From contig JABDLF010000058.1 in assembly GCA_013003115.1 (NCBI GenBank), positions 3,716-67,715 of the forward strand: a DNA stretch of 64,000 nucleotides, given 5' to 3'. This document shows positions 18,210 through 49,893 of this stretch, piece after piece; position 1 is the first letter of the stretch, and every line of letters begins with the position of its first letter. The notes under the pieces are model-generated. The model made no database searches and was not told the DNA's origin. It worked only from the letters and a program-made list of their open reading frames with translations. A program made the position numbers and the translations under genes. The stretch is from Gammaproteobacteria bacterium (GTDB taxonomy: Bacteria; Pseudomonadota; Gammaproteobacteria; Steroidobacterales; JABDLF01).

Positions 18210-19580
18210 ATGACCAGCAAGAGCAAAGAGATTCGCGTCACACCAGAAGGCAGCCTCGAGGTGCTTTCGCAACTGGAGGTTCTCGCGCTGCGCGACAGCA
18301 GCACCTCGGGACTGCAGGAGCTATTTCGCAGCTGTGCACTTGCCGTGCTCAACAGCGGCAGCCTGACCGATGATGCGGTACAGGTTTTCGAGCAATACAA
18401 AGACTTCGCCATTGAGCTCGTGCAGCAGGATCGGGGAATCAAGCTCGAAGTTCGCAATGCCCCGGCAACTGCCTTTGTCGACGGCCGCATGATTCGCGGC
18501 ATCCAGGAGCACCTGTTCGCCGTTCTGCGCGACATCATTTATACACGCAACGAAATATACGACAGTGGAACGTTCAATTTAGAAGAGCCTGAGCACATCA
18601 CTTCGGCAGTTTTTCATATCTTGCGAAATGCCCGCATGCTTATCCCGAACCGGGAGCCTCGAATGGTGGTTTGCTGGGGCGGCCACGCCATAGGTCGGGA
18701 GGAGTACGACTACACGAAGAAGGTCGGCTACGAGCTTGGCCTGCGTGGCCTTGACGTTTGCACAGGGTGCGGCCCGGGCGCGATGAAGGGACCGATGAAG
18801 GGAGCGACCATTGGCCACTCAAAGCAGCGCATAAAAGACGGCCGCTATCTCGGCATTTCGGAACCGGGCATTATCGCCGCTGAGTCGCCCAACCCCATAG
18901 TCAACGGCCTGGTTATCATGCCCGACATCGAGAAGCGACTGGAGGCATTTGTGCGCGTGGCCCATGGCATTATCGTGTTCCCGGGCGGCGCCGGCACGGC
19001 AGAGGAAATTCTCTACTTACTGGGAATTTTGCTCAACCCGGCGAATCGGGAAATGCCATTTCCCGTTGTGCTGACGGGTCCTGAAAAATCCGCTGACTAC
19101 TTTCGCCAGATCGATGGCTTTATCAAAGCTACCCTCGGCGAAGAAGCAGGCGATCTGTACCAAATCATTGTTGGCGATCCACCGGCAGTCGCCAAGCGCA
19201 TGCGCCGCGGGATGCAGAAAGTACGCAAATACCGGATAGCCGGCAAAGACGCTTTCTATTTCAACTGGCTGTTGCGAATCGAAAAAGAATTTCAGATGCC
19301 CTTCGAACCCACGCATGAAAACATGCGCTCACTGGCCCTCAATCGCGACCAGCCGCCACACATACTTGCTGCGAATCTCCGCCGCGCCTTCTCGGGAATC
19401 GTCGCTGGCAACGTCAAAGAGCCGGGCATACGGAGCATTGAGAAACATGGACCATTCGAAATTAATGGTGATGCCGAGATCATGTCCCGGCTTGACGATC
19501 TGCTCGGCGCTTTTGTCGCGGACAACCGCATGAAGTTGCATGGACAGGACTACACGCCCTGCTATCGCCTGGTTCTGTGA
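18210..19580 (+). CDS. ppnN: Nucleotide 5'-monophosphate nucleosidase PpnN (YgdH, LOG family)
   Basis: VVCWGGH, TGCGPGAMKGPMKGA, PDIEKRLEAF, PGGAGTAEE, LRRAFSGIVAGNVK. Confidence 0.95.
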   Translation: MTSKSKEIRVTPEGSLEVLSQLEVLALRDSSTSGLQELFRSCALAVLNSGSLTDDAVQVFEQYKDFAIELVQQDRGIKLEVRNAPATAFVDGRMIRGIQEHLFAVLRDIIYTRNEIYDSGTFNLEEPEHITSAVFHILRNARMLIPNREPRMVVCWGGHAIGREEYDYTKKVGYELGLRGLDVCTGCGPGAMKGPMKGATIGHSKQRIKDGRYLGISEPGIIAAESPNPIVNGLVIMPDIEKRLEAFVRVAHGIIVFPGGAGTAEEILYLLGILLNPANREMPFPVVLTGPEKSADYFRQIDGFIKATLGEEAGDLYQIIVGDPPAVAKRMRRGMQKVRKYRIAGKDAFYFNWLLRIEKEFQMPFEPTHENMRSLALNRDQPPHILAANLRRAFSGIVAGNVKEPGIRSIEKHGPFEINGDAEIMSRLDDLLGAFVADNRMKLHGQDYTPCYRLVL

Positions 19581-31838: not shown

Positions 31839-32894
31839 ATGAATCAACCGACCGGCACAAACCCCGACCTCTCAACCGAGCGCACCTGGCAGGCCGCCGT
31901 CCTCGACAGCCGGGATTACCTGGTGATGGCGCTCGACCCCCATGGCGTAATTCGCAGCATCAGCGCTGGCGGTCTGCTGCAGCTAGGTTACAAACTCGAG
32001 GAGCTGCGCGGCAAGATTGCCCCTGCCATTCTGTTTGAGCCGCGCGAAATTACGCGCCGGGCGCGACGGCTGAGCGAAGAGCTCGGAGAGAACATCGAAC
32101 CGGGGTTCAAGGTTTTCGTTTTCAGGGCGCAACAGGGAATTCCGGATGAGCAGGAATGGAACTGCGTACGACGGGATGGCAGCCATTTCCCGGTGCGCAT
32201 GTCCCTGCATCCGCAGCGCGATGCCGGTGGCGAAGTCAGCGGCTTTATTGCCATGGCTCGCAACGTCAGCGACCTGATCAGAGCGCGCAAAGATCTGTCC
32301 GACAGGGAAACCCAGCTCAAGGTAGCGCACGCAAGACTGGCGGCAACAACGGTAACCGACGAGCTGACCGGCATGAAAAATCGCCGCGCTTTCAACGAGC
32401 ACCTCGAACGGGAATTTCAGCGTGGTCTGCGTCATCACAGCATGCTGTCATTGATCTTTGCGAATATCGATGACATCAAAGGTTATAACGCAGAGTACGG
32501 GCATCATGCGGGCGATGAACTGATCAAGATGGTCTCTGAGCAAATTCTGAAGGACACGCGGAGCACCGATTACGTTGCACGCTTTGCTGGTGACGAATTC
32601 GCATTTGTATTGCCCCAGACGGACCGTGAGGGAGCCATGATCAAGGCGGATCGGCTGAGAGAGTCCATCGAGTCGAGCGAGTGGCCGCTGCGACCCGTGA
32701 CGGTCAGCGTGGGCGTGGCAACAATGACCGAGGAGTCTCCGGTCGTCCAGGACCTCACCAATAGCCGCACGCTGATTTCGAGGGCTCGTGATGCGCTCTT
32801 CGAGGCGAAAAGGACTGGCGCCAATCGAACCACGCACTTCAGGGAAATCACTAAGGATGGCGCGGACAAAGACGGCCAGGCCGAGCAGGCCTGA
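31839..32894 (+). CDS. Cytoplasmic PAS-GGDEF protein with degenerate active site and intact I-site
   Basis: PAS/PAC (RRDGSHFPV), TDELTG, NIDDIK instead of DIDxFK, RSTD-x5-AGDEF. Confidence 0.88.
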   Translation: MNQPTGTNPDLSTERTWQAAVLDSRDYLVMALDPHGVIRSISAGGLLQLGYKLEELRGKIAPAILFEPREITRRARRLSEELGENIEPGFKVFVFRAQQGIPDEQEWNCVRRDGSHFPVRMSLHPQRDAGGEVSGFIAMARNVSDLIRARKDLSDRETQLKVAHARLAATTVTDELTGMKNRRAFNEHLEREFQRGLRHHSMLSLIFANIDDIKGYNAEYGHHAGDELIKMVSEQILKDTRSTDYVARFAGDEFAFVLPQTDREGAMIKADRLRESIESSEWPLRPVTVSVGVATMTEESPVVQDLTNSRTLISRARDALFEAKRTGANRTTHFREITKDGADKDGQAEQA

Positions 32895-33083: not shown

Positions 33084-35567
33084 ATGCAATCAAAGCTGGC
33101 AACCCTTTTCATCGCCGCGGTACTCGCCACCGCGAGCGTTGACGCAGCCGAATCCGGCGCATCCGATACACCGCTGCAACTCGATCTCAGCAACAGCCTG
33201 CGTGTGGGTGCTTACGTGCTCGATCTTTCCAGCGAGCAGCGCAGACACAATGCGGTGGCCATGGCGCGTTCCAACCAACTCGAGCCCGCGGCGCGGGTAC
33301 TCGAAGCACTGCACAGACGCGTGCCGGCAGACCGACAGGTGCTGTTCGACCTGTTGAGCGTGCTTAGCTGGCAAGGTGACCATGGACGCGTGGTGGCTCT
33401 TGCAGACGGCCTTAAGTCGCATGATCCGCCGGTCTACGTGCTTGAGGCCGTGGCGGGGTCGGCTCGCAGAAGTGCCAATTTTCAGGCCGCCATAGGCTGG
33501 TATGAAATTGCCCTCAAGAAAGAACCGGCTAACGCAGCGCTCAATGCAGGAATCATACTCAGCCACGCGGACGCTGGCGAAGCGAGCAAAGCACGCGCCC
33601 TGTTTGACGCTTCGCCCCCGGCTTTCAAGCGCTCCCTGGACGGCATGCTACTGGATGCCTACCTGCTCACAGCGGCGGGCCATCATCTGCAGGCCTTGTC
33701 GGCTTATGACCGGATTCTGCTTCGCAACGCCGACAACCCGGAGGCACAGCGCGGCAAATTTCGTGCGCTGTGGTCGCTCCTGCTGGTTGACCAGGCTCTG
33801 GAATTCGCTGCTGGTCATCCGGGCGTCGCCGAGCGCGAAGACATCCACGGGCTTTACGTCGACAGGGCCGCACTTTGGGTTCGGTGGGGCACGGAACCCA
33901 TCCAGCGCGGAAGCCACCGGTTCGCCGATCTCGACCGCGCGCTTGATCTGTTACAACAAAACCGGAGCCGATTCCCCGCCAACACCGAGCTGGGGAAAAC
34001 AACCCGCTTTGACCTCATTGCTGCTTTGCATGCACGCGGCCGTCACGACGAGGTTGCGGAAAGCTACGATGATCTCGACCTCGCAGACAATGCGTTCCCT
34101 GCCTACGCGCTGCGTGCGGTGGCCGGCTCGCAGCTCGCCCGGCGCGAGCCTGAGGAAGCGCTGCGACTGTATGACATGGCTCTCGACAAGCAGCCCGCAG
34201 ACTTCGACTTGAAACTCGATCGCTTTTTCGCGCTGGTTGAGCTGGATCGTCACGCGCAAGCTCGTGAACTTGCCGAAGACCTGGTTTTCTCACAGGACAT
34301 ATGGCTTACCGTTCCCGGCTCAAGAGTCGTAAAACCCAACCCCCGAAGGCTCAAAGCAGAAATCACACGCGCGCTGTCACATGCATACGCCGATGATCTT
34401 GCCACTGCCCAGTCCTTGTTTCAGGACATGCTTGCCGAGGCACCGCACAACACTGACGTTCGCCAGGAACTGGGCAACGTCTATCGCTGGCGAGGCTGGC
34501 CACGACGCGCGCTCTCGGAATACCGGCAGGTCTACACCGTCGAAGACGATCTGCTGAGTGCTCGTGTCGGCCTCGCAAATTCGCTGCTGGATCTCAACAT
34601 GGGCCGGGAGTTCGAACCCCTGTTTGCCGAGCTCAGGAACGAAGCACCGGACAACGCCGGCGTAAAGCGTCTCATTCGTCGCCATGACGTCTATCGCCGC
34701 AACCAGGTTTCCGTGGATGCCGGCGGCGGCACCAGCAGCGGAGAGCAGTTTGGCAGTCGCCAGCACCTGGCCGAGGCACGGCTGACTCTCGGCGGCTTCG
34801 GATATAACTGGCGACCATTCCTTAATTTGCATGACTCGCGAGCAGAGTTCACCGAAGGCACCGCGCGTAGAAAAAGCGCCGGGCTCGGCATCCAGTTTCG
34901 CCTTCCTGGTCACACGCTGGAAGCGGCGGCAAGCAGCAGCCTGGACGGCGAGTCGCGAACCGGCTTTGCCTTCTCGTATGGCTGGGACATCGACGACCGC
35001 TGGCGTCTCGACGGCCTGTTTGAAACCGAGTCTCATGCCCTGCCTCTGCGGGCCTATCGGAACGGCATAGACGCTGATCGACTGAGGCTGGCCGGGAGTT
35101 TCAGATATAGCGAGCTTCGTCAGGTTCGGGCGGCGCTCGAAGCGATGGACTTTTCCGACGGCAATGTGCGCAAGGCCCTTTTGCTTGAGGCGCGCCAGCG
35201 ACTGGTCAACGCCCCTCGCGTCAAATTCGATCTTGCCGCCGAATTCTTCACATCGCGAAACGACCTCACGGACGCCGCCTACTTCAGCCCCTCATCTGAC
35301 CGCGCCTTCAATCTTGGCGGCGACCTGCGCTGGCGAATGTTTCGTCGCTACGAAAGAAACTTCGACCAGCAGATTATTCTTAACGCAGGCCGCTACAGCC
35401 AAAGCGGCTTCGCCGCCGGCAATGTCGGCAGCATCGAGCTTCGCCAGGTAGTTCAATTGTCACACGCGCTCGAGTTTTTCTTTGGCGTGCGACGTGCGCG
35501 CGCCCTGTACGACGGTGGACTCGAATATGGCACCTTTTACCAGGGCGGAATCAGGGGGCGATTCTGA
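33084..35567 (+). CDS. pgaA: PNAG export porin PgaA (TPR plus beta-barrel)
   Basis: Signal peptide, TPR-like region, RGWPRRA, YFSP, C-terminal Phe; first gene of the pga operon. Confidence 0.92.
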   Translation: MQSKLATLFIAAVLATASVDAAESGASDTPLQLDLSNSLRVGAYVLDLSSEQRRHNAVAMARSNQLEPAARVLEALHRRVPADRQVLFDLLSVLSWQGDHGRVVALADGLKSHDPPVYVLEAVAGSARRSANFQAAIGWYEIALKKEPANAALNAGIILSHADAGEASKARALFDASPPAFKRSLDGMLLDAYLLTAAGHHLQALSAYDRILLRNADNPEAQRGKFRALWSLLLVDQALEFAAGHPGVAEREDIHGLYVDRAALWVRWGTEPIQRGSHRFADLDRALDLLQQNRSRFPANTELGKTTRFDLIAALHARGRHDEVAESYDDLDLADNAFPAYALRAVAGSQLARREPEEALRLYDMALDKQPADFDLKLDRFFALVELDRHAQARELAEDLVFSQDIWLTVPGSRVVKPNPRRLKAEITRALSHAYADDLATAQSLFQDMLAEAPHNTDVRQELGNVYRWRGWPRRALSEYRQVYTVEDDLLSARVGLANSLLDLNMGREFEPLFAELRNEAPDNAGVKRLIRRHDVYRRNQVSVDAGGGTSSGEQFGSRQHLAEARLTLGGFGYNWRPFLNLHDSRAEFTEGTARRKSAGLGIQFRLPGHTLEAAASSSLDGESRTGFAFSYGWDIDDRWRLDGLFETESHALPLRAYRNGIDADRLRLAGSFRYSELRQVRAALEAMDFSDGNVRKALLLEARQRLVNAPRVKFDLAAEFFTSRNDLTDAAYFSPSSDRAFNLGGDLRWRMFRRYERNFDQQIILNAGRYSQSGFAAGNVGSIELRQVVQLSHALEFFFGVRRARALYDGGLEYGTFYQGGIRGRF

Positions 35568-37507
35568 TGTCGCGCGCAATCAAACTTCTGGTTTTGCTGT
35601 TGGCCCTCGTCACCATAAGCCCGGCGCAGGCGGCCACGGAATTTATCGCCGTGTCCTACCATGACGTGCGAGACGATGTGGTCGCGGATTACGACCCGGA
35701 TCAGTACGCGGTTGCAACCGAAAATCTTGCCGCGCATTTTCGCTGGCTAAACGATCATGGCTACAAGCCAGTCAGCATCGCGGCCATTCTTGCGGCGCGA
35801 GCAGGCGGCACGCCGCTCCCCGAGAAAGCCGTTCTACTCACATTTGATGACGGTTATCGCAGCCACTACACCAGGGTCTTTCCGCTTCTCAAGGCTTTCA
35901 ATTACCCGGCGGTTTTCAGCCTGGTGACAAACTGGATGTCGCAGCCAGCCGGTGCGCGTATTCAGTATGGCAATGAGCCAAAGACACGCGAGGATTTTCT
36001 CAGCTGGGAACAGGTGCGCGAAATGCAGTCCTCAGGACTCGCCGAATTCGCATCCCACAGCCACGACCTGCACAAAGGAGTGCATGCCAACCCCCAGGGC
36101 AACGAGCTGCCGGCCGCCGTCGCTCGCCGATTCTCGGACGGCCAATACGAAGACAATCAGGCCTATCTGCGCCGGCTGCGGGAAGATCTGGGCAATAGCA
36201 TCAGGATTCTCGAGCGCGAGCTGGGTTTCAGACCACAGGTCATGACCTGGCCCTACGGAAAGTTTTCTGTCGACAGCGTTGGCGTTGCCCGCGAGCTCGG
36301 TCTGGACATAAACCTCACCCTCGAAACTGGCCGCGGCAATTTGCAGGAGTTAGCCCTGATCCCGCGCCATCTGATCCTGGCCAACCCAACGGCGGCAAAC
36401 CTCGCAGCGTCTCTCCTGCTTCCGGAAAGGCCGTCGATAGTGCGCGCCGCGCACGTCGATCTTGACTATCTGTATGATCCGGATCCTGCACAGCAGGAGG
36501 TCAATCTCAGCCTGCTGCTGAATCGCATACGTGCGCTCGAAATCAGCCACGTGTTCCTGCAGGCCTTTGCTGACCCGGACGCCAACGGGGCCGCTGCTTC
36601 GGTGTATTTTCCGAATCGGCACATGCCGGTGCGCGCTGACCTTTTCAGTCGCGTTGCATGGCAACTCAAAACCCGTGCCGACGTGCTGGTCTATGCCTGG
36701 ATGCCCATCCTGGCCTTTGAATTGCCTGACCCTGGCCAGGATCGATATGTGCTCGAATCAACCCACGCCGGCGTGCGCGCGGATCCCAAAAGTGAGCCAC
36801 GGCTGAGTCCGTTTGACGCCGACAACCGGAAACTCGTTCTTGATCTCTACGAAGATCTCGCTATCCATGCCGATTTCGACGGCATTCTTTTCCATGACGA
36901 CGGGCGGCTCAACGAATTCGAGGATGCCAGCGCACCAGGCCAGCGCGAACTGCAGGCGCTGTTTGGCAATAGCTACTCCTTCAGACAGCTGCGGGAGGAT
37001 CCCGACGCGCTCAGGCAATGGTCCCGGCACAAGCAGCAAGCTCTCACGGAATTCACCGGCAAACTCGCCAACCATGTTCGTCGCTGGCACCCTGAGATAA
37101 AGACCGCACGCAACCTGTTTGCCGACACGGTGCTTAAACCTGAAAGCGAATCATGGCTGGCGCAATCTATCGCCACAGCCATTGAAACTTACGATTACGT
37201 CGCGCTCATGGCCATGCCGTACCTGGAGAATCGCGATGATGCGGAAGCGTTTCTGCGGACCCTCGCAGTGAAGGTTACCGAATTGCCGCGCGGACCGCAG
37301 AAAGTCATTTTCGAGTTTCAAACCGTTGACTGGCGAAATGGCCACGAGATCCATGCCACTGAAATTGCCAGGCACATGCGCCGCCTCCAGAGCCTCGGTA
37401 TCAGGCACTTCGCCTGGTATCCCGACGATTTCATAGCCGGCAAGCCAGCCCTCGAGCCTTTGCGCGAGGGCGCCTCCCTGGCCGATTACACGCACCGGAG
37501 GCGCTGA
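35567..37507 (+). CDS. pgaB: PNAG N-deacetylase/hydrolase PgaB
   Basis: YHDV, LTFDDG, HSHDLH, WPYG, HVDLDY, DGILFHDD, MAMPY, YPDDF. Confidence 0.96.
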   Translation: MSRAIKLLVLLLALVTISPAQAATEFIAVSYHDVRDDVVADYDPDQYAVATENLAAHFRWLNDHGYKPVSIAAILAARAGGTPLPEKAVLLTFDDGYRSHYTRVFPLLKAFNYPAVFSLVTNWMSQPAGARIQYGNEPKTREDFLSWEQVREMQSSGLAEFASHSHDLHKGVHANPQGNELPAAVARRFSDGQYEDNQAYLRRLREDLGNSIRILERELGFRPQVMTWPYGKFSVDSVGVARELGLDINLTLETGRGNLQELALIPRHLILANPTAANLAASLLLPERPSIVRAAHVDLDYLYDPDPAQQEVNLSLLLNRIRALEISHVFLQAFADPDANGAAASVYFPNRHMPVRADLFSRVAWQLKTRADVLVYAWMPILAFELPDPGQDRYVLESTHAGVRADPKSEPRLSPFDADNRKLVLDLYEDLAIHADFDGILFHDDGRLNEFEDASAPGQRELQALFGNSYSFRQLREDPDALRQWSRHKQQALTEFTGKLANHVRRWHPEIKTARNLFADTVLKPESESWLAQSIATAIETYDYVALMAMPYLENRDDAEAFLRTLAVKVTELPRGPQKVIFEFQTVDWRNGHEIHATEIARHMRRLQSLGIRHFAWYPDDFIAGKPALEPLREGASLADYTHRRR

Positions 37508-37509
37508 GT

Positions 37510-38772
37510 ATGGACTTCGGCCACACATCAGCGATCTTCGACTTTGCCTACTACTATCCGCTATTCATGGGCTACCTGTGGATCATCGCCGCGCTTGTCT
37601 ATTACTTTCACTGGGAAAGAAAAGACCGCTTTAGCTATGAGCAGATGCCCAGGCTGAAGGATCAGCCACCCGTTTCTTTCATAGTGCCCTGTCACAATGA
37701 AGGCGATAATTGTCGCGAAACCATCGACTCGCTTCTGCGGCAGAACTACCCTGAGTTCGAGATCATCGCGATCAACGACTGCAGCAGCGACGATACGGGA
37801 GCCGTCCTCGACGACATTCAGCAAAACTGCGAAAACGTGCGTGTAATTCACTTTGCGGCAAATCAGGGCAAAGGAATGGGGCTGCGCATGGGCGCCCTGA
37901 CGGCGCGTCATGAGTTTCTTGTCTGTCTCGATGGCGACGCGCTGCTGCACCCCAACGCAACGCTGTGGCTAATGCGGCACTTCGTCAGCGGACCGCGCGT
38001 CGGTGCGGTAACCGGCAACCCGCGGGTACGCAATCGCACCACGCTGCTTGGCAAAATCCAGGTCTGCGAATTTTCATCCATCATCGGCCTGATAAAACGC
38101 GCACAGAGAATCTACGGGCGCGTGTTTACTGTCTCTGGCGTTGTCAGCGCCTTTCGAAAAACGGCGCTGCATCACGTGGGTTACTGGAACCTCGACATGG
38201 TAACGGAGGACATTGATGTCAGCTGGCGGCTACAGCTGAATCACTGGGATATTCGCTACGAGCCGCGTGCCGTGTGCTGGATCCTGATGCCCGAAAAGCT
38301 CATTGGTCTCTGGCGCCAGAGACTACGCTGGTCACAGGGTGGACTGGAAGTCCTGCGTCGCTATTGGCGATTGCTTTTTAAATGGCGCTCGCGACGCATG
38401 TGGCTCGTCAGCTTCGAACTGATGTTGTCCACATTCTGGGCCCACGTGATGGGCGCGATACTCCTGCTTTGGATTGCCGGTAAATTTCTGCCTCTGCCTG
38501 AAACCATGCAGGTGCCCACGGTTATTCCAGGCTGGGCCGGCGTCATCCTCGGATTTACCTGCCTGCTGCAGTTCGCTGTCAGCCTCACCATGGACGGTCG
38601 CTACGAACCCCGGCTCGGGCGCTTCTACTACTGGATGATCTGGTACCCGATGATCTACTGGGTGATTCAGGCAGCAACGACAATCGTGGCATTCCCTCGC
38701 GCTATGTTCAGGCTGCGCGGCCGTCGGGCCATCTGGACAAGCCCGGATCGCGGACTGAGGCCACCATCATGA
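37510..38772 (+). CDS. pgaC: PNAG synthase PgaC (GT2)
   Basis: PCHNE, DCSSD, LDGD, TEDID, QRLRW, WTSPDRG. Confidence 0.96.
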   Translation: MDFGHTSAIFDFAYYYPLFMGYLWIIAALVYYFHWERKDRFSYEQMPRLKDQPPVSFIVPCHNEGDNCRETIDSLLRQNYPEFEIIAINDCSSDDTGAVLDDIQQNCENVRVIHFAANQGKGMGLRMGALTARHEFLVCLDGDALLHPNATLWLMRHFVSGPRVGAVTGNPRVRNRTTLLGKIQVCEFSSIIGLIKRAQRIYGRVFTVSGVVSAFRKTALHHVGYWNLDMVTEDIDVSWRLQLNHWDIRYEPRAVCWILMPEKLIGLWRQRLRWSQGGLEVLRRYWRLLFKWRSRRMWLVSFELMLSTFWAHVMGAILLLWIAGKFLPLPETMQVPTVIPGWAGVILGFTCLLQFAVSLTMDGRYEPRLGRFYYWMIWYPMIYWVIQAATTIVAFPRAMFRLRGRRAIWTSPDRGLRPPS

Positions 38773-46091: not shown

Positions 46092-47345
46092 TTGGTCCCG
46101 GAAAATCCAGTAATAACCAACGATGCCGTGCTGCTGGGCCTGCTCATGCTCACTCTCGGGGCCGTTTTTACGATTTACAGCAGCAATCGACCGGCTGTGC
46201 AGAAATTCTGCAAGTTCGTCCCAGCCCTGCTGCTTTGCTATTTCATCCCCTCTCTTTACAACAGCTTTAACCTCATCGACGCGGAGAACTCCAAGCTCTA
46301 CTTCGTCGCGTCCCGCTATCTTTTGCCGGCCTGCCTGGTGCTTCTCACCCTCAGTATTGACCTGCCCTCTGTGCTCAAACTCGGCTACAAAGCGATAGTG
46401 ATGTTCCTCACCGGGACCGTTGGCATTCTCATCGGCGGGCCCCTCGCTATCCTGGCGGTCAGCGCCATCAGCCCTGAAATTGTTGGTGGTAGCGGACCCG
46501 ATGCGGTGTGGAGAGGATTGACCACCGTTGCCGGCTCATGGATCGGGGGCGGTGCCAATCAGGCAGCGATGAAGGAAGTTTTTGATGTCAGCGACGCTTT
46601 GTTTTCTCAAATGGTTGCGGTTGATGTGATCTGGGCGAACATCTGGCTGGCTCTGCTCCTGCTCGCTGCCGGACAGGCCGCGCGAATCGACGCCTGGATG
46701 CGCGCGGATACGCGCGCCATCGAGGATCTCAAACGGCGGGTCGAAGCTTTTCATGATGAACACGCGAAGCTCCTCGATTTTCCTGACCTCATCAAAATGT
46801 GCGCGCTGGCATTCGGCATAACTGGCCTGGCACACGCGCTGGCAGGTGCCATCGTGCCGTGGATAAGAGATGCAGCGCCGGTCCTTGAAAGGCTCAGCCT
46901 CACCAGCGAATTCTTCTGGATTGTGGTTATTTCGACCACCGGCGGTCTTGTGCTTTCTTTCACGCGCGCGCGGCAACTGGAGGGTGCGGGCGCATCCACC
47001 GTTGGCTCCGGGTTCCTCTACGTCCTCATTGCAACCATCGGAATGAAAATGGACGTTATGGCGATCTTCGACAATCCCGGCCTGTTTCTGGTTGGCGGAA
47101 TCTGGATCGGCATCCACGCCGCGGCACTTTTATTAATGGCAAGACTGCTTCGCGCGCCGGTCTTTTACCTTGCAGTGGGCAGTCAGGCTAACGTGGGTGG
47201 CGCCGCTTCGGCGCCCGTGGTTGCCAGCGCCTTTCACCCCTCGCTGGCACCGGTTGGCGTGCTTCTCGCGGTCCTCGGATACGCGATTGGCACCTATGCC
47301 GCATGGATCTGTGGTCAACTGATGCGGCTGGCCGCACCCGCCTAA
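46092..47345 (+). CDS. DUF819 family membrane protein
   Basis: AGSWIGGGANQAAM, GSQANVGGAASAPVVA; TTG start 46092 after GGAG. Confidence 0.88.
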   Translation: MVPENPVITNDAVLLGLLMLTLGAVFTIYSSNRPAVQKFCKFVPALLLCYFIPSLYNSFNLIDAENSKLYFVASRYLLPACLVLLTLSIDLPSVLKLGYKAIVMFLTGTVGILIGGPLAILAVSAISPEIVGGSGPDAVWRGLTTVAGSWIGGGANQAAMKEVFDVSDALFSQMVAVDVIWANIWLALLLLAAGQAARIDAWMRADTRAIEDLKRRVEAFHDEHAKLLDFPDLIKMCALAFGITGLAHALAGAIVPWIRDAAPVLERLSLTSEFFWIVVISTTGGLVLSFTRARQLEGAGASTVGSGFLYVLIATIGMKMDVMAIFDNPGLFLVGGIWIGIHAAALLLMARLLRAPVFYLAVGSQANVGGAASAPVVASAFHPSLAPVGVLLAVLGYAIGTYAAWICGQLMRLAAPA

Positions 47346-47373
47346 AAAACAGGCCGGACCCGAAGGCCCGGCC
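47344..47373 (-). terminator. Rho-independent terminator
   Basis: GGCCGGGCC-UUCG-GGUCCGGCC-UGUUUUUU on the minus strand. Confidence 0.85.
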
Positions 47374-47438
47374 AAATAAGATCAGAAACGCCTTTCCCTG
47401 GCATACGGGGGGTGCCGCCACGTCCCTGTGACGGGCGC
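47344..47438 (-). ncRNA. Putative Csr/Rsm-family small RNA
   Basis: Hairpins CCGUCAC-AGGGAC-GUGGCGG and AUGCC-AGGGAAA-GGCGU, then a GC stem with U-tract; -10 CATTAT at 47449-47444. Confidence 0.65.
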
Positions 47439-47472
47439 TTTTGATAATGGCGGCAAGTAACGCCGGCCACCA

Positions 47473-47488
47473 TACGTGTTGGCACGTA
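47473..47488. promoter_or_regulatory. Perfect inverted repeat, candidate response-regulator site
   Basis: TACGTG-ttgg-CACGTA centred about 43 bp upstream of the inferred sRNA start. Confidence 0.55.
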
Positions 47489-47521
47489 CCTGATCGTCTA
47501 CAAAAGCAAACAACATAAAAA

Positions 47522-48157
47522 TCAACTGTTTGGGGGCGCGCCTATTTCGTGAACACCACAGCGAACCGCCATGGCCACCAGCTCCGGCAGTGATTGCGCT
47601 GACATCTTCTCCATCATTCGTGTTCGATGCAGCTCTACGGTGCGATAGCTGATTTCGAGAAGCCTGGCGATTTCCTTATTCTGACGACCCGCAACCACGT
47701 GCAAAAGCACCTCGCGCTCCCGTGGCGTCAGGCGGTCAAAGCGCTGCAACAGCTTCTTGCGCTCCTGCTCACTCGCCCGACGGCGATGAGAAATCTCCAA
47801 CGCTTCCTGCACACGCCGAAGCAGCGTCTCACGCGAAAATGGCTTCTCAAGAAAATCCAGTGCACCGCCCTTGATGGCGCGTACTGAAACGGGAACATCT
47901 CCGTGCCCGGAAACAAACACGACGGGCACTTTCGATTTGACAGAATTCAAATGCTCCTGCAGCTCCAGCCCGCTCTTCCCCGGCATGCGTATATCCAGAA
48001 TCAGGCATGCCGTTTCTTCTGGCACATACTCTTCGAGAAACTCTTCCGCCGTCGCAAACGCCTTTACGGGATAACCGGCGGTGTTCAGCATCATCAGCAT
48101 TGAATCGCGCACGGCGCGATCATCATCGACTACGCAAACAAAGCGAGTATCAGGCAT
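47522..48157 (-). CDS. FixJ/TtrR-type response regulator (REC plus LuxR HTH)
   Basis: VVDDD, LDIRMPGKSG, SGHGD, FLEKP, LTPREREVL, RTVELHR. Confidence 0.93.
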   Translation of the reverse strand: MPDTRFVCVVDDDRAVRDSMLMMLNTAGYPVKAFATAEEFLEEYVPEETACLILDIRMPGKSGLELQEHLNSVKSKVPVVFVSGHGDVPVSVRAIKGGALDFLEKPFSRETLLRRVQEALEISHRRRASEQERKKLLQRFDRLTPREREVLLHVVAGRQNKEIARLLEISYRTVELHRTRMMEKMSAQSLPELVAMAVRCGVHEIGAPPNS

Positions 48158-49820
48158 CCGCAGTGCCCTCTGCCAGCGGAAGTCTGATTTCGAAACATGC
48201 GCCGCTGCCCGTATTTTTAACCGCGCTTAGCGAGCCTCCATGAGCTTCGAGAATTGAACGGCTGATCGACAACCCCAGACCCATTCCATAGGGCTTGCTG
48301 GTTTCGAAAGGCTCAAAAATCGATGCTGCTGAGTCAGGCTTCAGGCCTGGCCCGGTATCGGCCACGCTGATTTCGACGCTATGCGCACCCGGGCTGGCTG
48401 CACGTATGGTAATCAGACGCTCATCGGAGTGCTCGTTGTCTTCGATTGCTTCAATCGCGTTGCGCAACAAGTTAAACAGCACCTGCTGAATCTGGATTCG
48501 ACAGACTTCGATAGCCGGTAAACGTTCGGCGCACTCGTCTGCAATGCGGATTTTGCGGGCGCGCGCATCGTGCGCCACCAGCCCTACCGTTTCCTCGATC
48601 AGCTGCTTCAGGTCTACGACGGTCCGGGTTGTGTCGCCCTTGCGAACAAACTCGCGTAGCCTGCGAATTATCTCGCCTGCCCGCTGCGCCTGCGCGGCCG
48701 CACCACGAAGGGCACGCTCCAGAATTTCGTCATCGCGTGCGTCCGCGAATAACTCTGAGATGCCGGTTTCACAGTAGTTGCTAATGGCGGCCAGCGGTTG
48801 GTTGATCTCGTGCGCGACGCTGGACGCCATTTCACCCATGGCGACAAGGCGTGCCTCATGTGCGATGTTGTCGCGCTTGGCGCGCCCGGCTATCGCCGCT
48901 TCGCGCCTCTCGATGGCCAGTCCAAACAGGCTGGCAACTGTTCTTAGCGCCTCGGTCTCGGCAACCCCCCAGTCCCGCGGACCGCTGCACTCATCGAATC
49001 CCATGCAACCCCACCACTTGCTGCCGGTAAAAATCGGCACCACCGCTATCGCAGCAATAGACTGGGACTCAAGCAGATCGCGCTCCGACGCGGGAAAGTC
49101 CCTGACCTGGCCCGCAACGAGACGACCGCGGCTCAGCAGTTTCAGCCAGCGACCGTAACCTGCCTGCTCCATTGGGAGATCCTGCAGTTCCTCGTTGTCA
49201 ATCTGGGGTTCTATTTCAGGCGCCACCCACTCGAAGCGCTGGCTGAAAAGCAGCGACTCCTCGCTGTCATAATGCGCCTCAAATATGTAGACGCGACTGA
49301 CGCCGGTAGCCTCGCCCAGGTCTCTCAAAAGCTGGTTGCAGCTGTCGTCCCAGTCATCGTCCGCGAGATAGCGCGCTGCCGCAGTGCTGATGGTTTGCAA
49401 AATGGCATCGCGGCTTACCATCGCATCCTCTTGCTCGCTCTCTCTGCGAATATCCCGCAGCGCGATGACTGCCAGCTGACCCCCTTCAGACTGCCACAGC
49501 CGCCCAAACAACACGCGCGAGCTTATCCTCGGATCTGTGCCTTCGAATACCGGATCAAGCCGCATAGAATTTTTTTTCTGCAATGTGGAAAAAAATGCCG
49601 GCCAGTCTGCAACCCGAGGATCGACGTTTCTCACGTGCCGGCCAATGAGCTTTTCGCGCGGGCGGCTCAGCACGTTAGCTGCGCTCAGGTTAGTACCGAC
49701 AATACGGCCTTCGGGGCTTACGCAATATACGGGATACTCGCAGAGGTCCAGAACCGAGCACAGCTGCGTGATCTCCCCGCCCACTGCTTTTTCTGATGTG
49801 GAATTCTCTTGCTCGGCCAA
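48150..49820 (-). CDS. Soluble PAS-GAF sensor histidine kinase (FixL/TtrS-like kinase core)
   Basis: MASSVAHEINQPL, QVLFNLLRNA, DTGPG, GMGLGLSISRS; no TM helix; TTG start 49820. Confidence 0.92.
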   Translation of the reverse strand: MAEQENSTSEKAVGGEITQLCSVLDLCEYPVYCVSPEGRIVGTNLSAANVLSRPREKLIGRHVRNVDPRVADWPAFFSTLQKKNSMRLDPVFEGTDPRISSRVLFGRLWQSEGGQLAVIALRDIRRESEQEDAMVSRDAILQTISTAAARYLADDDWDDSCNQLLRDLGEATGVSRVYIFEAHYDSEESLLFSQRFEWVAPEIEPQIDNEELQDLPMEQAGYGRWLKLLSRGRLVAGQVRDFPASERDLLESQSIAAIAVVPIFTGSKWWGCMGFDECSGPRDWGVAETEALRTVASLFGLAIERREAAIAGRAKRDNIAHEARLVAMGEMASSVAHEINQPLAAISNYCETGISELFADARDDEILERALRGAAAQAQRAGEIIRRLREFVRKGDTTRTVVDLKQLIEETVGLVAHDARARKIRIADECAERLPAIEVCRIQIQQVLFNLLRNAIEAIEDNEHSDERLITIRAASPGAHSVEISVADTGPGLKPDSAASIFEPFETSKPYGMGLGLSISRSILEAHGGSLSAVKNTGSGACFEIRLPLAEGTADA

Positions 49821-49893
49821 AATACCCCCCGGGAATTTTTCACGATGATAACAGCAGGCTCCCTGCCTCGCCCGGCACACGCTTCATAAAACG

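Follow-up and report, generated by a model that had tools for sequence, protein, structure and literature searches.

The 64-kb window analysed here, the whole stretch of DNA taken from contig JABDLF010000058.1, belongs to an uncultured beach-sand bacterium that is represented by an incomplete metagenome-assembled genome (MAG; assembly size 2.17 Mb). On its minus strand, the genes for a sensor histidine kinase and a FixJ-like response regulator are followed by what looks like a conserved gene for a small RNA (sRNA) of about 95 bases with two hairpins resembling binding sites of the RNA-binding protein CsrA. A preliminary description of this DNA had placed the RNA in a 176-bp gap downstream of a FixLJ-like two-component system. 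The size of the gap (47346-47521) and the regulator upstream of it are as described, but the gap separates convergent genes: a DUF819 membrane protein gene on the plus strand has its 3' end at 47345, facing the regulator. The groESL genes lie upstream of the kinase and have their own terminator.

The kinase had been described as a soluble PAS-GAF protein. The GAF domain is present and no obvious hydrophobic or membrane segment is seen by eye in the translation, suggesting a soluble enzyme, but Pfam detects no PAS domain at E ≤ 0.001, so the PAS label is unverified. The real start codon probably lies 3' of the listed GTG. Against the NCBIfam FixL model the kinase scores 219 bits (cut-off 850), with the C-terminal part alone covered, and its transmitter reads as FixL-like. 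The regulator matches the NCBIfam FixJ equivalog model NF006900 over its full length with 225.2 bits, below the cut-off of 255, and reaches 58 bits against the UvrY/GacA model (cut-off 280). By these scores and its REC and GerE domains it classifies as FixJ-like, not as a FixJ equivalog. All features that the preliminary description had listed in the gap (a palindrome, a CATTAT hexamer, two hairpins, and a UUCG-loop terminator with U-tract) are where it had put them, on the minus strand (Table 1).

Table 1. Features of the kinase-regulator locus and of the gap downstream of it, in window coordinates.
Feature	Position	Strand	Remarks
Sensor histidine kinase	48150..49880	-	Pfam GAF, HisKA, HATPase_c
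FixJ-like response regulator, REC + GerE/LuxR helix-turn-helix, 211 aa	47522..48157	-	Pfam
Palindrome TACGTG-CCAA-CACGTA, 16 bp, putative activator site	47473..47488		centre about 43 bp upstream of likely RNA start
-10-like hexamer CATTAT	47444..47449	-	CATCAT in G003; 4/6 match to TATAAT
Predicted sRNA, about 95 nt	47344..47438	-	start placed from the -10 hexamer
Stem-loop 1 (SL1), 7-bp stem, hexaloop, CCGUCAC(AGGGAC)GUGGCGG	47415..47434	-	ACAGGGACGU fits CsrA/RsmA site
Linker 1, predicted unpaired, conserved run of six C	47405..47414	-	C-run kept in metagenome copies
Stem-loop 2 (SL2), 5-bp stem, AUGCC(AGGGAAA)GGCGU	47388..47404	-	CA-N-GGA kept in all copies seen
Linker 2, predicted unpaired UUCUGAUCUUAUUU before terminator	47374..47387	-	conserved
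Intrinsic terminator, stem-loop 47352-47373 + U-tract	47344..47373	-	GGCCGGGCC-UUCG-GGUCCGGCC, then UGUUUUUU; terminator scan agrees

To follow the element through related bacteria we searched the DNA of 40 relatives, namely the 3 other genomes of the genus, which with the present one make four incomplete MAGs of 65-94% completeness, and 37 genomes that represent 23 other families of the order. Two of the three genus genomes (G002 and G003) keep the element. In the third (G001, 65% complete) neither the RNA nor a close copy of the regulator was detected, and none of the 37 genomes of other families has the element, the match in G021 being 26 bases long and confined to the end of the regulator gene, outside the RNA. 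Gene order in G003 is the same as in the window: kinase (69% identical), regulator (78%), RNA and convergent DUF819 gene. In G002, the open reading frame before the RNA (L005:1703-2155, minus strand) matches the regulator from about residue 108 onward (63% over 102 aa), a part that comprises linker and helix-turn-helix. Unrelated sequence of hydrophobic character makes up the N-terminal 50 aa of this frame, and the contig breaks off 450 nt away; this could be a rearranged regulator or a chimeric contig. The helix-turn-helix part of the regulator is thus encoded directly upstream of the RNA in all three genomes that carry it.

An alignment of these three genomes reveals conservation in blocks. 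Only 12 of the 57 columns between the regulator stop codon and the palindrome are invariant, followed by 18/19 in the palindrome plus an adjoining TGG, 2/20 in the spacer, 5/6 in the -10 hexamer and 1/9 in the next 9 bp (the discriminator). Within the predicted transcript the counts are 20/20 for SL1, 7/10 for the C-run linker, 12/19 for SL2, 11/14 for linker 2 and 25/28 for the terminator. The distance from palindrome to SL1 is constant (41-42 nt). Such a pattern resembles that of a transcript behind a promoter with an activator site further upstream, and it is our chief argument against the element being a mere 3' untranslated region (UTR).

Further, more divergent copies were found on contigs of four metagenome runs compared at 80% likeness. 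No difference listed for them falls in SL1, the list omitting two differences and the letters near the ends of the pieces. The SL2 loop is more variable: it reads AGGGAAA, AGGGACGU and AGGGAUUGU in the three genomes and takes the forms AAGGAUAU, ACGGAUUCA and UCACGGAUGA in the metagenome contigs. In one of the latter AGGGA has changed to AAGGA, and in two others the whole of SL2 is replaced, once by ACGGAUUCA in an ACACC/GGUGU stem and once by UCACGGAUGA (read from loose ends). Outside CA-N-GGA the loop varies, as does part of the stem, but the motif itself is present in all six copies (N = G, G, G, A, C, C). The GGA loops are thus conserved in both hairpins. A fixed GGA next to a variable N fits protein recognition of CA-N-GGA better than pairing of GGG with the C-run. 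The C-run itself and GUUU(C/U)UGAUC are kept in the two divergent copies even where SL2 has been replaced.

The palindrome stands out in the genome. Its exact sequence occurs once in the 2.17-Mb assembly, where 0.11 copies are expected, and copies with one or two mismatches number 1 and 18 (4 and 69 expected). As proposed earlier, it is centred near -43 relative to the likely RNA start, and it is conserved while its flanks vary; the single variant seen is a C to U change at 47478 (minus strand) in a metagenome copy. It was also proposed that this operator is unlike the GacA box, and this stands: the GacA box consensus is TGTAAG-N6-CTTACA, no copy of which is present in the assembly, and no GacA equivalog was found. 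Apart from the -10-like hexamer the promoter is poorly defined, as TGGTGG at the -35 position matches 2/6. A sigma-54 reading of the palindrome was dropped by eye because the -12 element is absent. A 16-bp inverted repeat suits a dimer of a LuxR/FixJ-type helix-turn-helix. Its dimer-like symmetry, its uniqueness in the genome and its position next to the regulator gene lead us to infer that the adjacent regulator binds it.

The two GGA in the whole predicted transcript both lie in hairpin loops, as in Csr/Rsm-type sRNAs. They are 28 nt apart, which would put both loops within reach of one CsrA dimer, given a bridging range of 10-63 nt in a review of CsrA. The same review gives RUACARGGAUGU as the consensus from in vitro selection (SELEX: systematic evolution of ligands through exponential enrichment), in which ACA and GGA are invariant and GU nearly so, mostly in hexaloops where AC pairs with GU. 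SL1 has all of these features (ACA, GGA, GU, hexaloop and paired AC/GU), which bears out the match to the CsrA site that had been claimed for the loops, and it also matches CANGGAYG, given in a preprint on RsmV as the RsmA site in stem-loops. Two of the six SL2 copies fit CANGGAYG, namely that of G003 and the one reading UCACGGAUGA. The terminator consists of 9 pairs (8 G-C) and a loop of 4 followed by TGTTTTTT, the make-up of an intrinsic terminator, and its U-tract and the stop codon of the convergent DUF819 gene overlap. RNAalifold predicts a consensus for the three genus transcripts with SL1 and SL2 presenting GGA in their loops, plus the terminator. It comprises 24 pairs, one of them compensatory (G:C to A:U in SL2).

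We also asked how common such arrangements are in the genome. Pairs of ANGGA-loop hairpins 14-63 nt apart occur 41 times in 4.34 Mnt, 10 of them with both stems of at least 5 bp, and of these 10 only the candidate has a T-run in the following 110 nt. In the same 4.34 Mnt there are 311 matches to the ten-base RsmE-type consensus, 27 of them with a stem of at least 5 bp. Other pairs of CsrA-site hairpins, in the comM leader and in one intragenic case, were uninformative. Separately, a second conserved non-coding element of about 90 nt is present in all four genus genomes (L071:710-809, minus strand; G000:C112 ~18510-18610). It consists of a long imperfect stem and a terminator hairpin CCCAC(A(G/U)GGA(U/C))GUGGG with U-run; the terminator loop fully matches the CsrA consensus, two further GGA lie inside the predicted stem, and no TACGTG palindrome is nearby. 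This element may be a second CsrA-binding sRNA.

The host has the protein that such an RNA would bind. As the preliminary description required, a csrA gene is present, beside lysC (G000:C57:77691-77849; PF02599, 93.6 bits). Its product is about 88% identical to solved CsrA/RsmA over 57 residues and also matches RsmE of the RsmE-RNA complexes, so the same RNA specificity as that of solved RsmA/CsrA is a fair expectation. Known antagonists of CsrA were not found in the four genus genomes: there is no GacA/UvrY equivalog (best score 166 bits with model NF007018, cut-off 280) and no FliW, and RsmY, RsmZ and CsrB stay at or below 29.6, 21.1 and 10.8 bits (gathering scores 57, 44 and 71), rsmX not having been searched genome-wide. 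The sub-threshold RsmY matches that we examined are terminators behind genes. Looking for canonical Rsm RNAs by composition gave three windows with at least six ANGGA per 150 nt, all within open reading frames. By these searches CsrA is otherwise without a known antagonist. Of 151 genomes sampled evenly across the order, 121 have CsrA and 14 have a GacA-like protein (228-248 bits), none above the cut-off of 280; both counts include the unpublished genome G018, which shifts each by at most 1. From this imbalance, CsrA may be controlled through undiscovered small RNAs of similar kind in most of the order.

Two paralogous kinase-regulator loci elsewhere in the genome (L002:1501-1710, plus strand, G000:C110; L003:1477-1737, minus strand, G000:C57) each combine genes for a PAS-rich histidine kinase and a NarL-type response regulator with one immediately downstream for a divergent CsrA-like protein (69-86 aa; PF02599 33 bits, TIGR00202 27.5 bits). 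Both adjoin an NAD-glutamate-dehydrogenase-like gene. Together with csrA, the genome thus has three CsrA-family genes.

The RNA fits no Rfam family, and throughout the 64-kb window none reaches its gathering score; the highest-scoring matches at the locus are SorX with 26 bits (gathering score 46.6), mmgR with 26 (41) and RsmV with 10.6 (100). The comparison with Rfam proposed earlier therefore failed to place the RNA, as RsmY, RsmZ, CsrB, RsmV and all other families fall short. The alignments indicate that the near-matches to SorX and mmgR are driven mostly by the terminator. SL1 locally matches one RsmV hairpin (the 10.6 bits), and nothing of the Rsm/Csr clan scores higher at the locus.

In the searches made, the element is confined to the genus. 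With a covariance model of the RNA (R1), the three genus genomes score 113-117 bits and 14 others of the 151 genomes of the order 21-31 bits, the low-scoring matches being mostly terminator (8 alignments examined, 12 loci fetched). One of them (L033) does have GGA loops. Flanked by an ABC-transporter gene and a convergent open reading frame and lacking a terminator, it was rejected as a chance match. FixJ-like homologues with about 50% identity occur in 98 of the 151 genomes, a count that again includes G018. Covariation downstream of regulator orthologues had been suggested as a check: within the genus there is the one compensatory pair, and the 28 loci inspected outside it have neither an ACGT-N6-8-ACGT palindrome nor the RNA downstream of the regulator. 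An exact-pattern scan of 185,579 species genomes returned two other records only, both sand MAGs of the same genus, and two metagenome scans gave no match and one unrelated repeat, respectively. According to the model, pattern and orthologue scans, the system is a genus-level invention or evolves too fast to be traced.

Some of these homologues are followed by a different motif. At L047, L048, L054, L057, L059, L060, L061 and L065, TTAGGTAGAT.TTCGTATT ... CAATACT occurs about 10-120 nt after the FixJ-like gene and before the next gene. It was found in several other families of the order behind the ~50%-identity FixJ-like homologue, and it resembles a conserved promoter or operator belonging to another system.

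The explanation that we favour, at slightly less than even confidence, is an RNA with two sites for CsrA, transcribed on its own from an activator-dependent promoter that the neighbouring FixJ-like regulator probably switches on. In this proposal, the GAF-domain kinase would phosphorylate a LuxR/FixJ-type regulator whose gene is most likely the one directly upstream of the RNA. The phosphorylated regulator would bind the palindrome centred near -43 as a dimer and activate a promoter with a weak -10 (CATTAT) and without a usable -35. The resulting RNA of about 95 nt would fold into two hairpins and a terminator, each hairpin loop exposing CA-N-GGA, so that one CsrA dimer could hold both loops at once. 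The RNA would then titrate CsrA off its mRNA targets, or CsrA would in turn control the RNA. Transcription from this promoter, CsrA binding and the identity of the palindrome-binding protein are all deduced from sequence. A further step, which we regard as possible but doubtful, is that a soluble GAF kinase and a FixJ-type regulator took over the role of master switch in a lineage that keeps CsrA and lacks GacS/GacA, with a minimal one-dimer decoy RNA as the single genomic target.

Several observations weigh against this explanation. The minimum-energy folds of the single sequences are mutually discordant and do not reliably form the two hairpins, so that the folding check suggested earlier succeeds for the three-sequence consensus and fails for individual sequences. 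The z-scores of the single-sequence folds against shuffled sequences (-1.4 to -2.0) are not significant, a weakness that we attribute to alternative folds with the C-run paired to the GGG of the loops. Covariation hardly supports the structure (1/24 pairs), as SL1 is invariant and only three full sequences are available. The RNA has two sites only, compared with the many sites of a CsrA-sequestering sRNA, and the SL1 stem of 7 bp exceeds the four or fewer contiguous pairs of most SELEX hairpins reported in the review. A pure decoy leaves the conserved C-run and UUUCUGAUC stretch unexplained. No sigma-70-type promoter at the locus passes a consensus scan; this is compatible with activator dependence but is equally a plain missing promoter call. 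Only adjacency appears to link the regulator to the palindrome, and no intact receiver domain is seen upstream of the RNA in G002 before the contig ends. Finally, none of the runs containing this stretch is an RNA run, the 12 listed all being DNA from beach sand and marine sediment. In summary, the earlier interpretation is supported in part: a conserved and discrete unit, about 95 nt long, with a promoter-like pattern, two GGA-loop hairpins and a terminator stands, and a connection to pga genes that had been drawn with it does not.

The strongest rival is a base-pairing sRNA, possibly Hfq-dependent, that acts through the C-run (on G-rich ribosome-binding sites) and/or UUUCUGAUC, with the GGA loops secondary or with a dual function like that of McaS. 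We consider this less probable than our proposal, though a serious possibility. Both linkers are conserved (7/10 and 11/14 invariant columns) and persist in the divergent metagenome copies, and UUCUGAUCUUAUUU in linker 2 could serve as a seed or as a site for Hfq or RNase E; the C-run and the UUUCUGAUC stretch, both missed in the preliminary description, may have a base-pairing or dual role. A U-rich stretch followed by a terminator and a U-tail is the shape of Hfq-binding sRNAs, and Hfq was found in three of the four genus genomes. The best sub-threshold Rfam matches, SorX and mmgR, are base-pairing sRNAs, but these matches are mainly terminator-driven. McaS and GadY, base-pairing sRNAs too, are reported in the review to antagonise CsrA. 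Complements of the linkers, however, occur at chance frequency in the genome (16 ten-mers, 16 nine-mers and 6 complements of the C-run) and include no convincing start site, and the fixed GGA with variable N (G, A or C) suits recognition by a protein over GGG:CCC pairing.

The remaining rivals concern how the RNA is made and by whom it is switched on. It is quite improbable, in our view, that the RNA has no promoter of its own and forms the 3' UTR and terminator of the mRNA for kinase and regulator, perhaps cut out by RNase E, with the palindrome acting as an RNA hairpin or serving another purpose. Because no terminator was found between the regulator stop codon (47522) and the RNA's terminator (47373-47352), the RNA could be made by read-through, which also counts against our proposal. 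The failed promoter scan agrees with this origin, as does the sole palindrome variant, which would retain a G-U pair in an RNA hairpin, and the title of a 2026 preprint calls RsmW of Pseudomonas aeruginosa 3'-UTR-derived. What speaks for a separate promoter is a conserved 16-mer followed by a variable spacer of fixed length (20 bp), a conserved hexamer, 9 variable base pairs and abrupt full conservation at SL1, at a constant distance from the palindrome in three genomes. A 3'-UTR origin would in any case be compatible with CsrA binding, touching the production of the RNA and not its role. It is unlikely, but somewhat less so, that the RNA is real and binds CsrA while the palindrome is bound by some regulator that is not the FixJ-like neighbour, making the adjacency coincidental. 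At least three further REC+GerE regulators are encoded in the assembly, and G002 keeps sRNA and palindrome with no intact receiver domain seen upstream. The adjacent protein is favoured by its helix-turn-helix part upstream of the RNA in 3/3 genomes, by G001, which shows neither RNA nor regulator but is only 65% complete, by an inverted repeat of a size that suits a LuxR/FixJ-type dimer, and by a kinase transmitter and regulator that are both of FixL/FixJ type.

The pga connection concerned pgaABC as a possible CsrA target. These genes are present in the window (33084-38772), but there is no GGA at the ribosome-binding site of pgaA. A gene for a PAS-GGDEF diguanylate cyclase (31839-32894) precedes pgaA, pgaB and pgaC; its ribosome-binding site and start read CCAAGGAUGA, a near match to the CsrA site.

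CsrA is among the most widespread post-transcriptional regulators, and its known antagonists are multi-site sRNAs driven by Gac/UvrY or the protein FliW. The genus studied here has CsrA, none of the known antagonist parts was found in the genomes searched, and the sampled order shows a similar imbalance. If our explanation is correct, a dedicated FixJ-type system controlling a two-hairpin RNA would show how Csr is wired where Gac is missing, and a Csr circuit would have been rebuilt from different parts. The RNA would also be the smallest natural CsrA decoy, usable as a defined one-dimer ligand. The reach of the finding is limited to one uncultured genus, and precedents exist both for non-Gac control and for few-site sRNAs.

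The closest functional counterparts are RsmX, RsmY and RsmZ of Pseudomonas and CsrB and CsrC of E. coli. Like them, the candidate shows GGA in hairpin loops and ends in a Rho-independent terminator; its genome has a csrA/rsmA gene, and a two-component input is likely. Those RNAs have 5 to about 20 sites, whereas the candidate has two, belongs to none of them by sequence or structure and comes with an adjacent FixJ-type regulator in place of a detectable GacA equivalog or GacA box. RsmV and RsmW of P. aeruginosa, as presented in preprints, sequester RsmA/RsmF, are not under GacA control and carry CANGGAYG sites in stem-loops, and they set a precedent for the non-Gac input that the preliminary description had proposed. 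RsmV is described there as 192 nt long with four consensus sites, compared with about 95 nt and two sites here, and the candidate falls far below the RsmV gathering score (10.6 against 100 bits). RsmV and RsmW also act beside RsmY and RsmZ, neither of which was found in the genus. McaS of E. coli is a small RNA with few GGA that, according to the review, antagonises CsrA and raises pgaA expression. The candidate likewise has unpaired conserved stretches, but no McaS match appeared in the Rfam searches at the locus and no pga link was seen.

The logic of the proposed circuit resembles that of GacS/GacA (BarA/UvrY), in which a regulator of the NarL/FixJ class likewise has the promoter of a CsrA-binding sRNA, with a palindrome upstream, as its main or only direct target. 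The parts differ: the candidate kinase appears soluble and has a GAF domain, whereas GacS/BarA is a membrane hybrid kinase; on the UvrY/GacA model the regulator reaches 58 bits against a cut-off of 280; and the single palindrome per genome, TACGTG-N4-CACGTA near -43, is not the GacA box. In the same review, fliW is absent from Gammaproteobacteria and anti-correlated with BarA-UvrY. A narrow literature search on RsmA and GacA-independent small RNAs returned nothing on a FixJ-type input, and 'FixJ box' returned nothing, which does not imply absence from print. Non-Gac control (RsmV, RsmW) and few-site CsrA-binding sRNAs (McaS, GadY) are already known from the sources named above; what is new is the combination of a putative minimal two-hairpin RNA, a dedicated adjacent FixJ-type system and a lineage without Gac.

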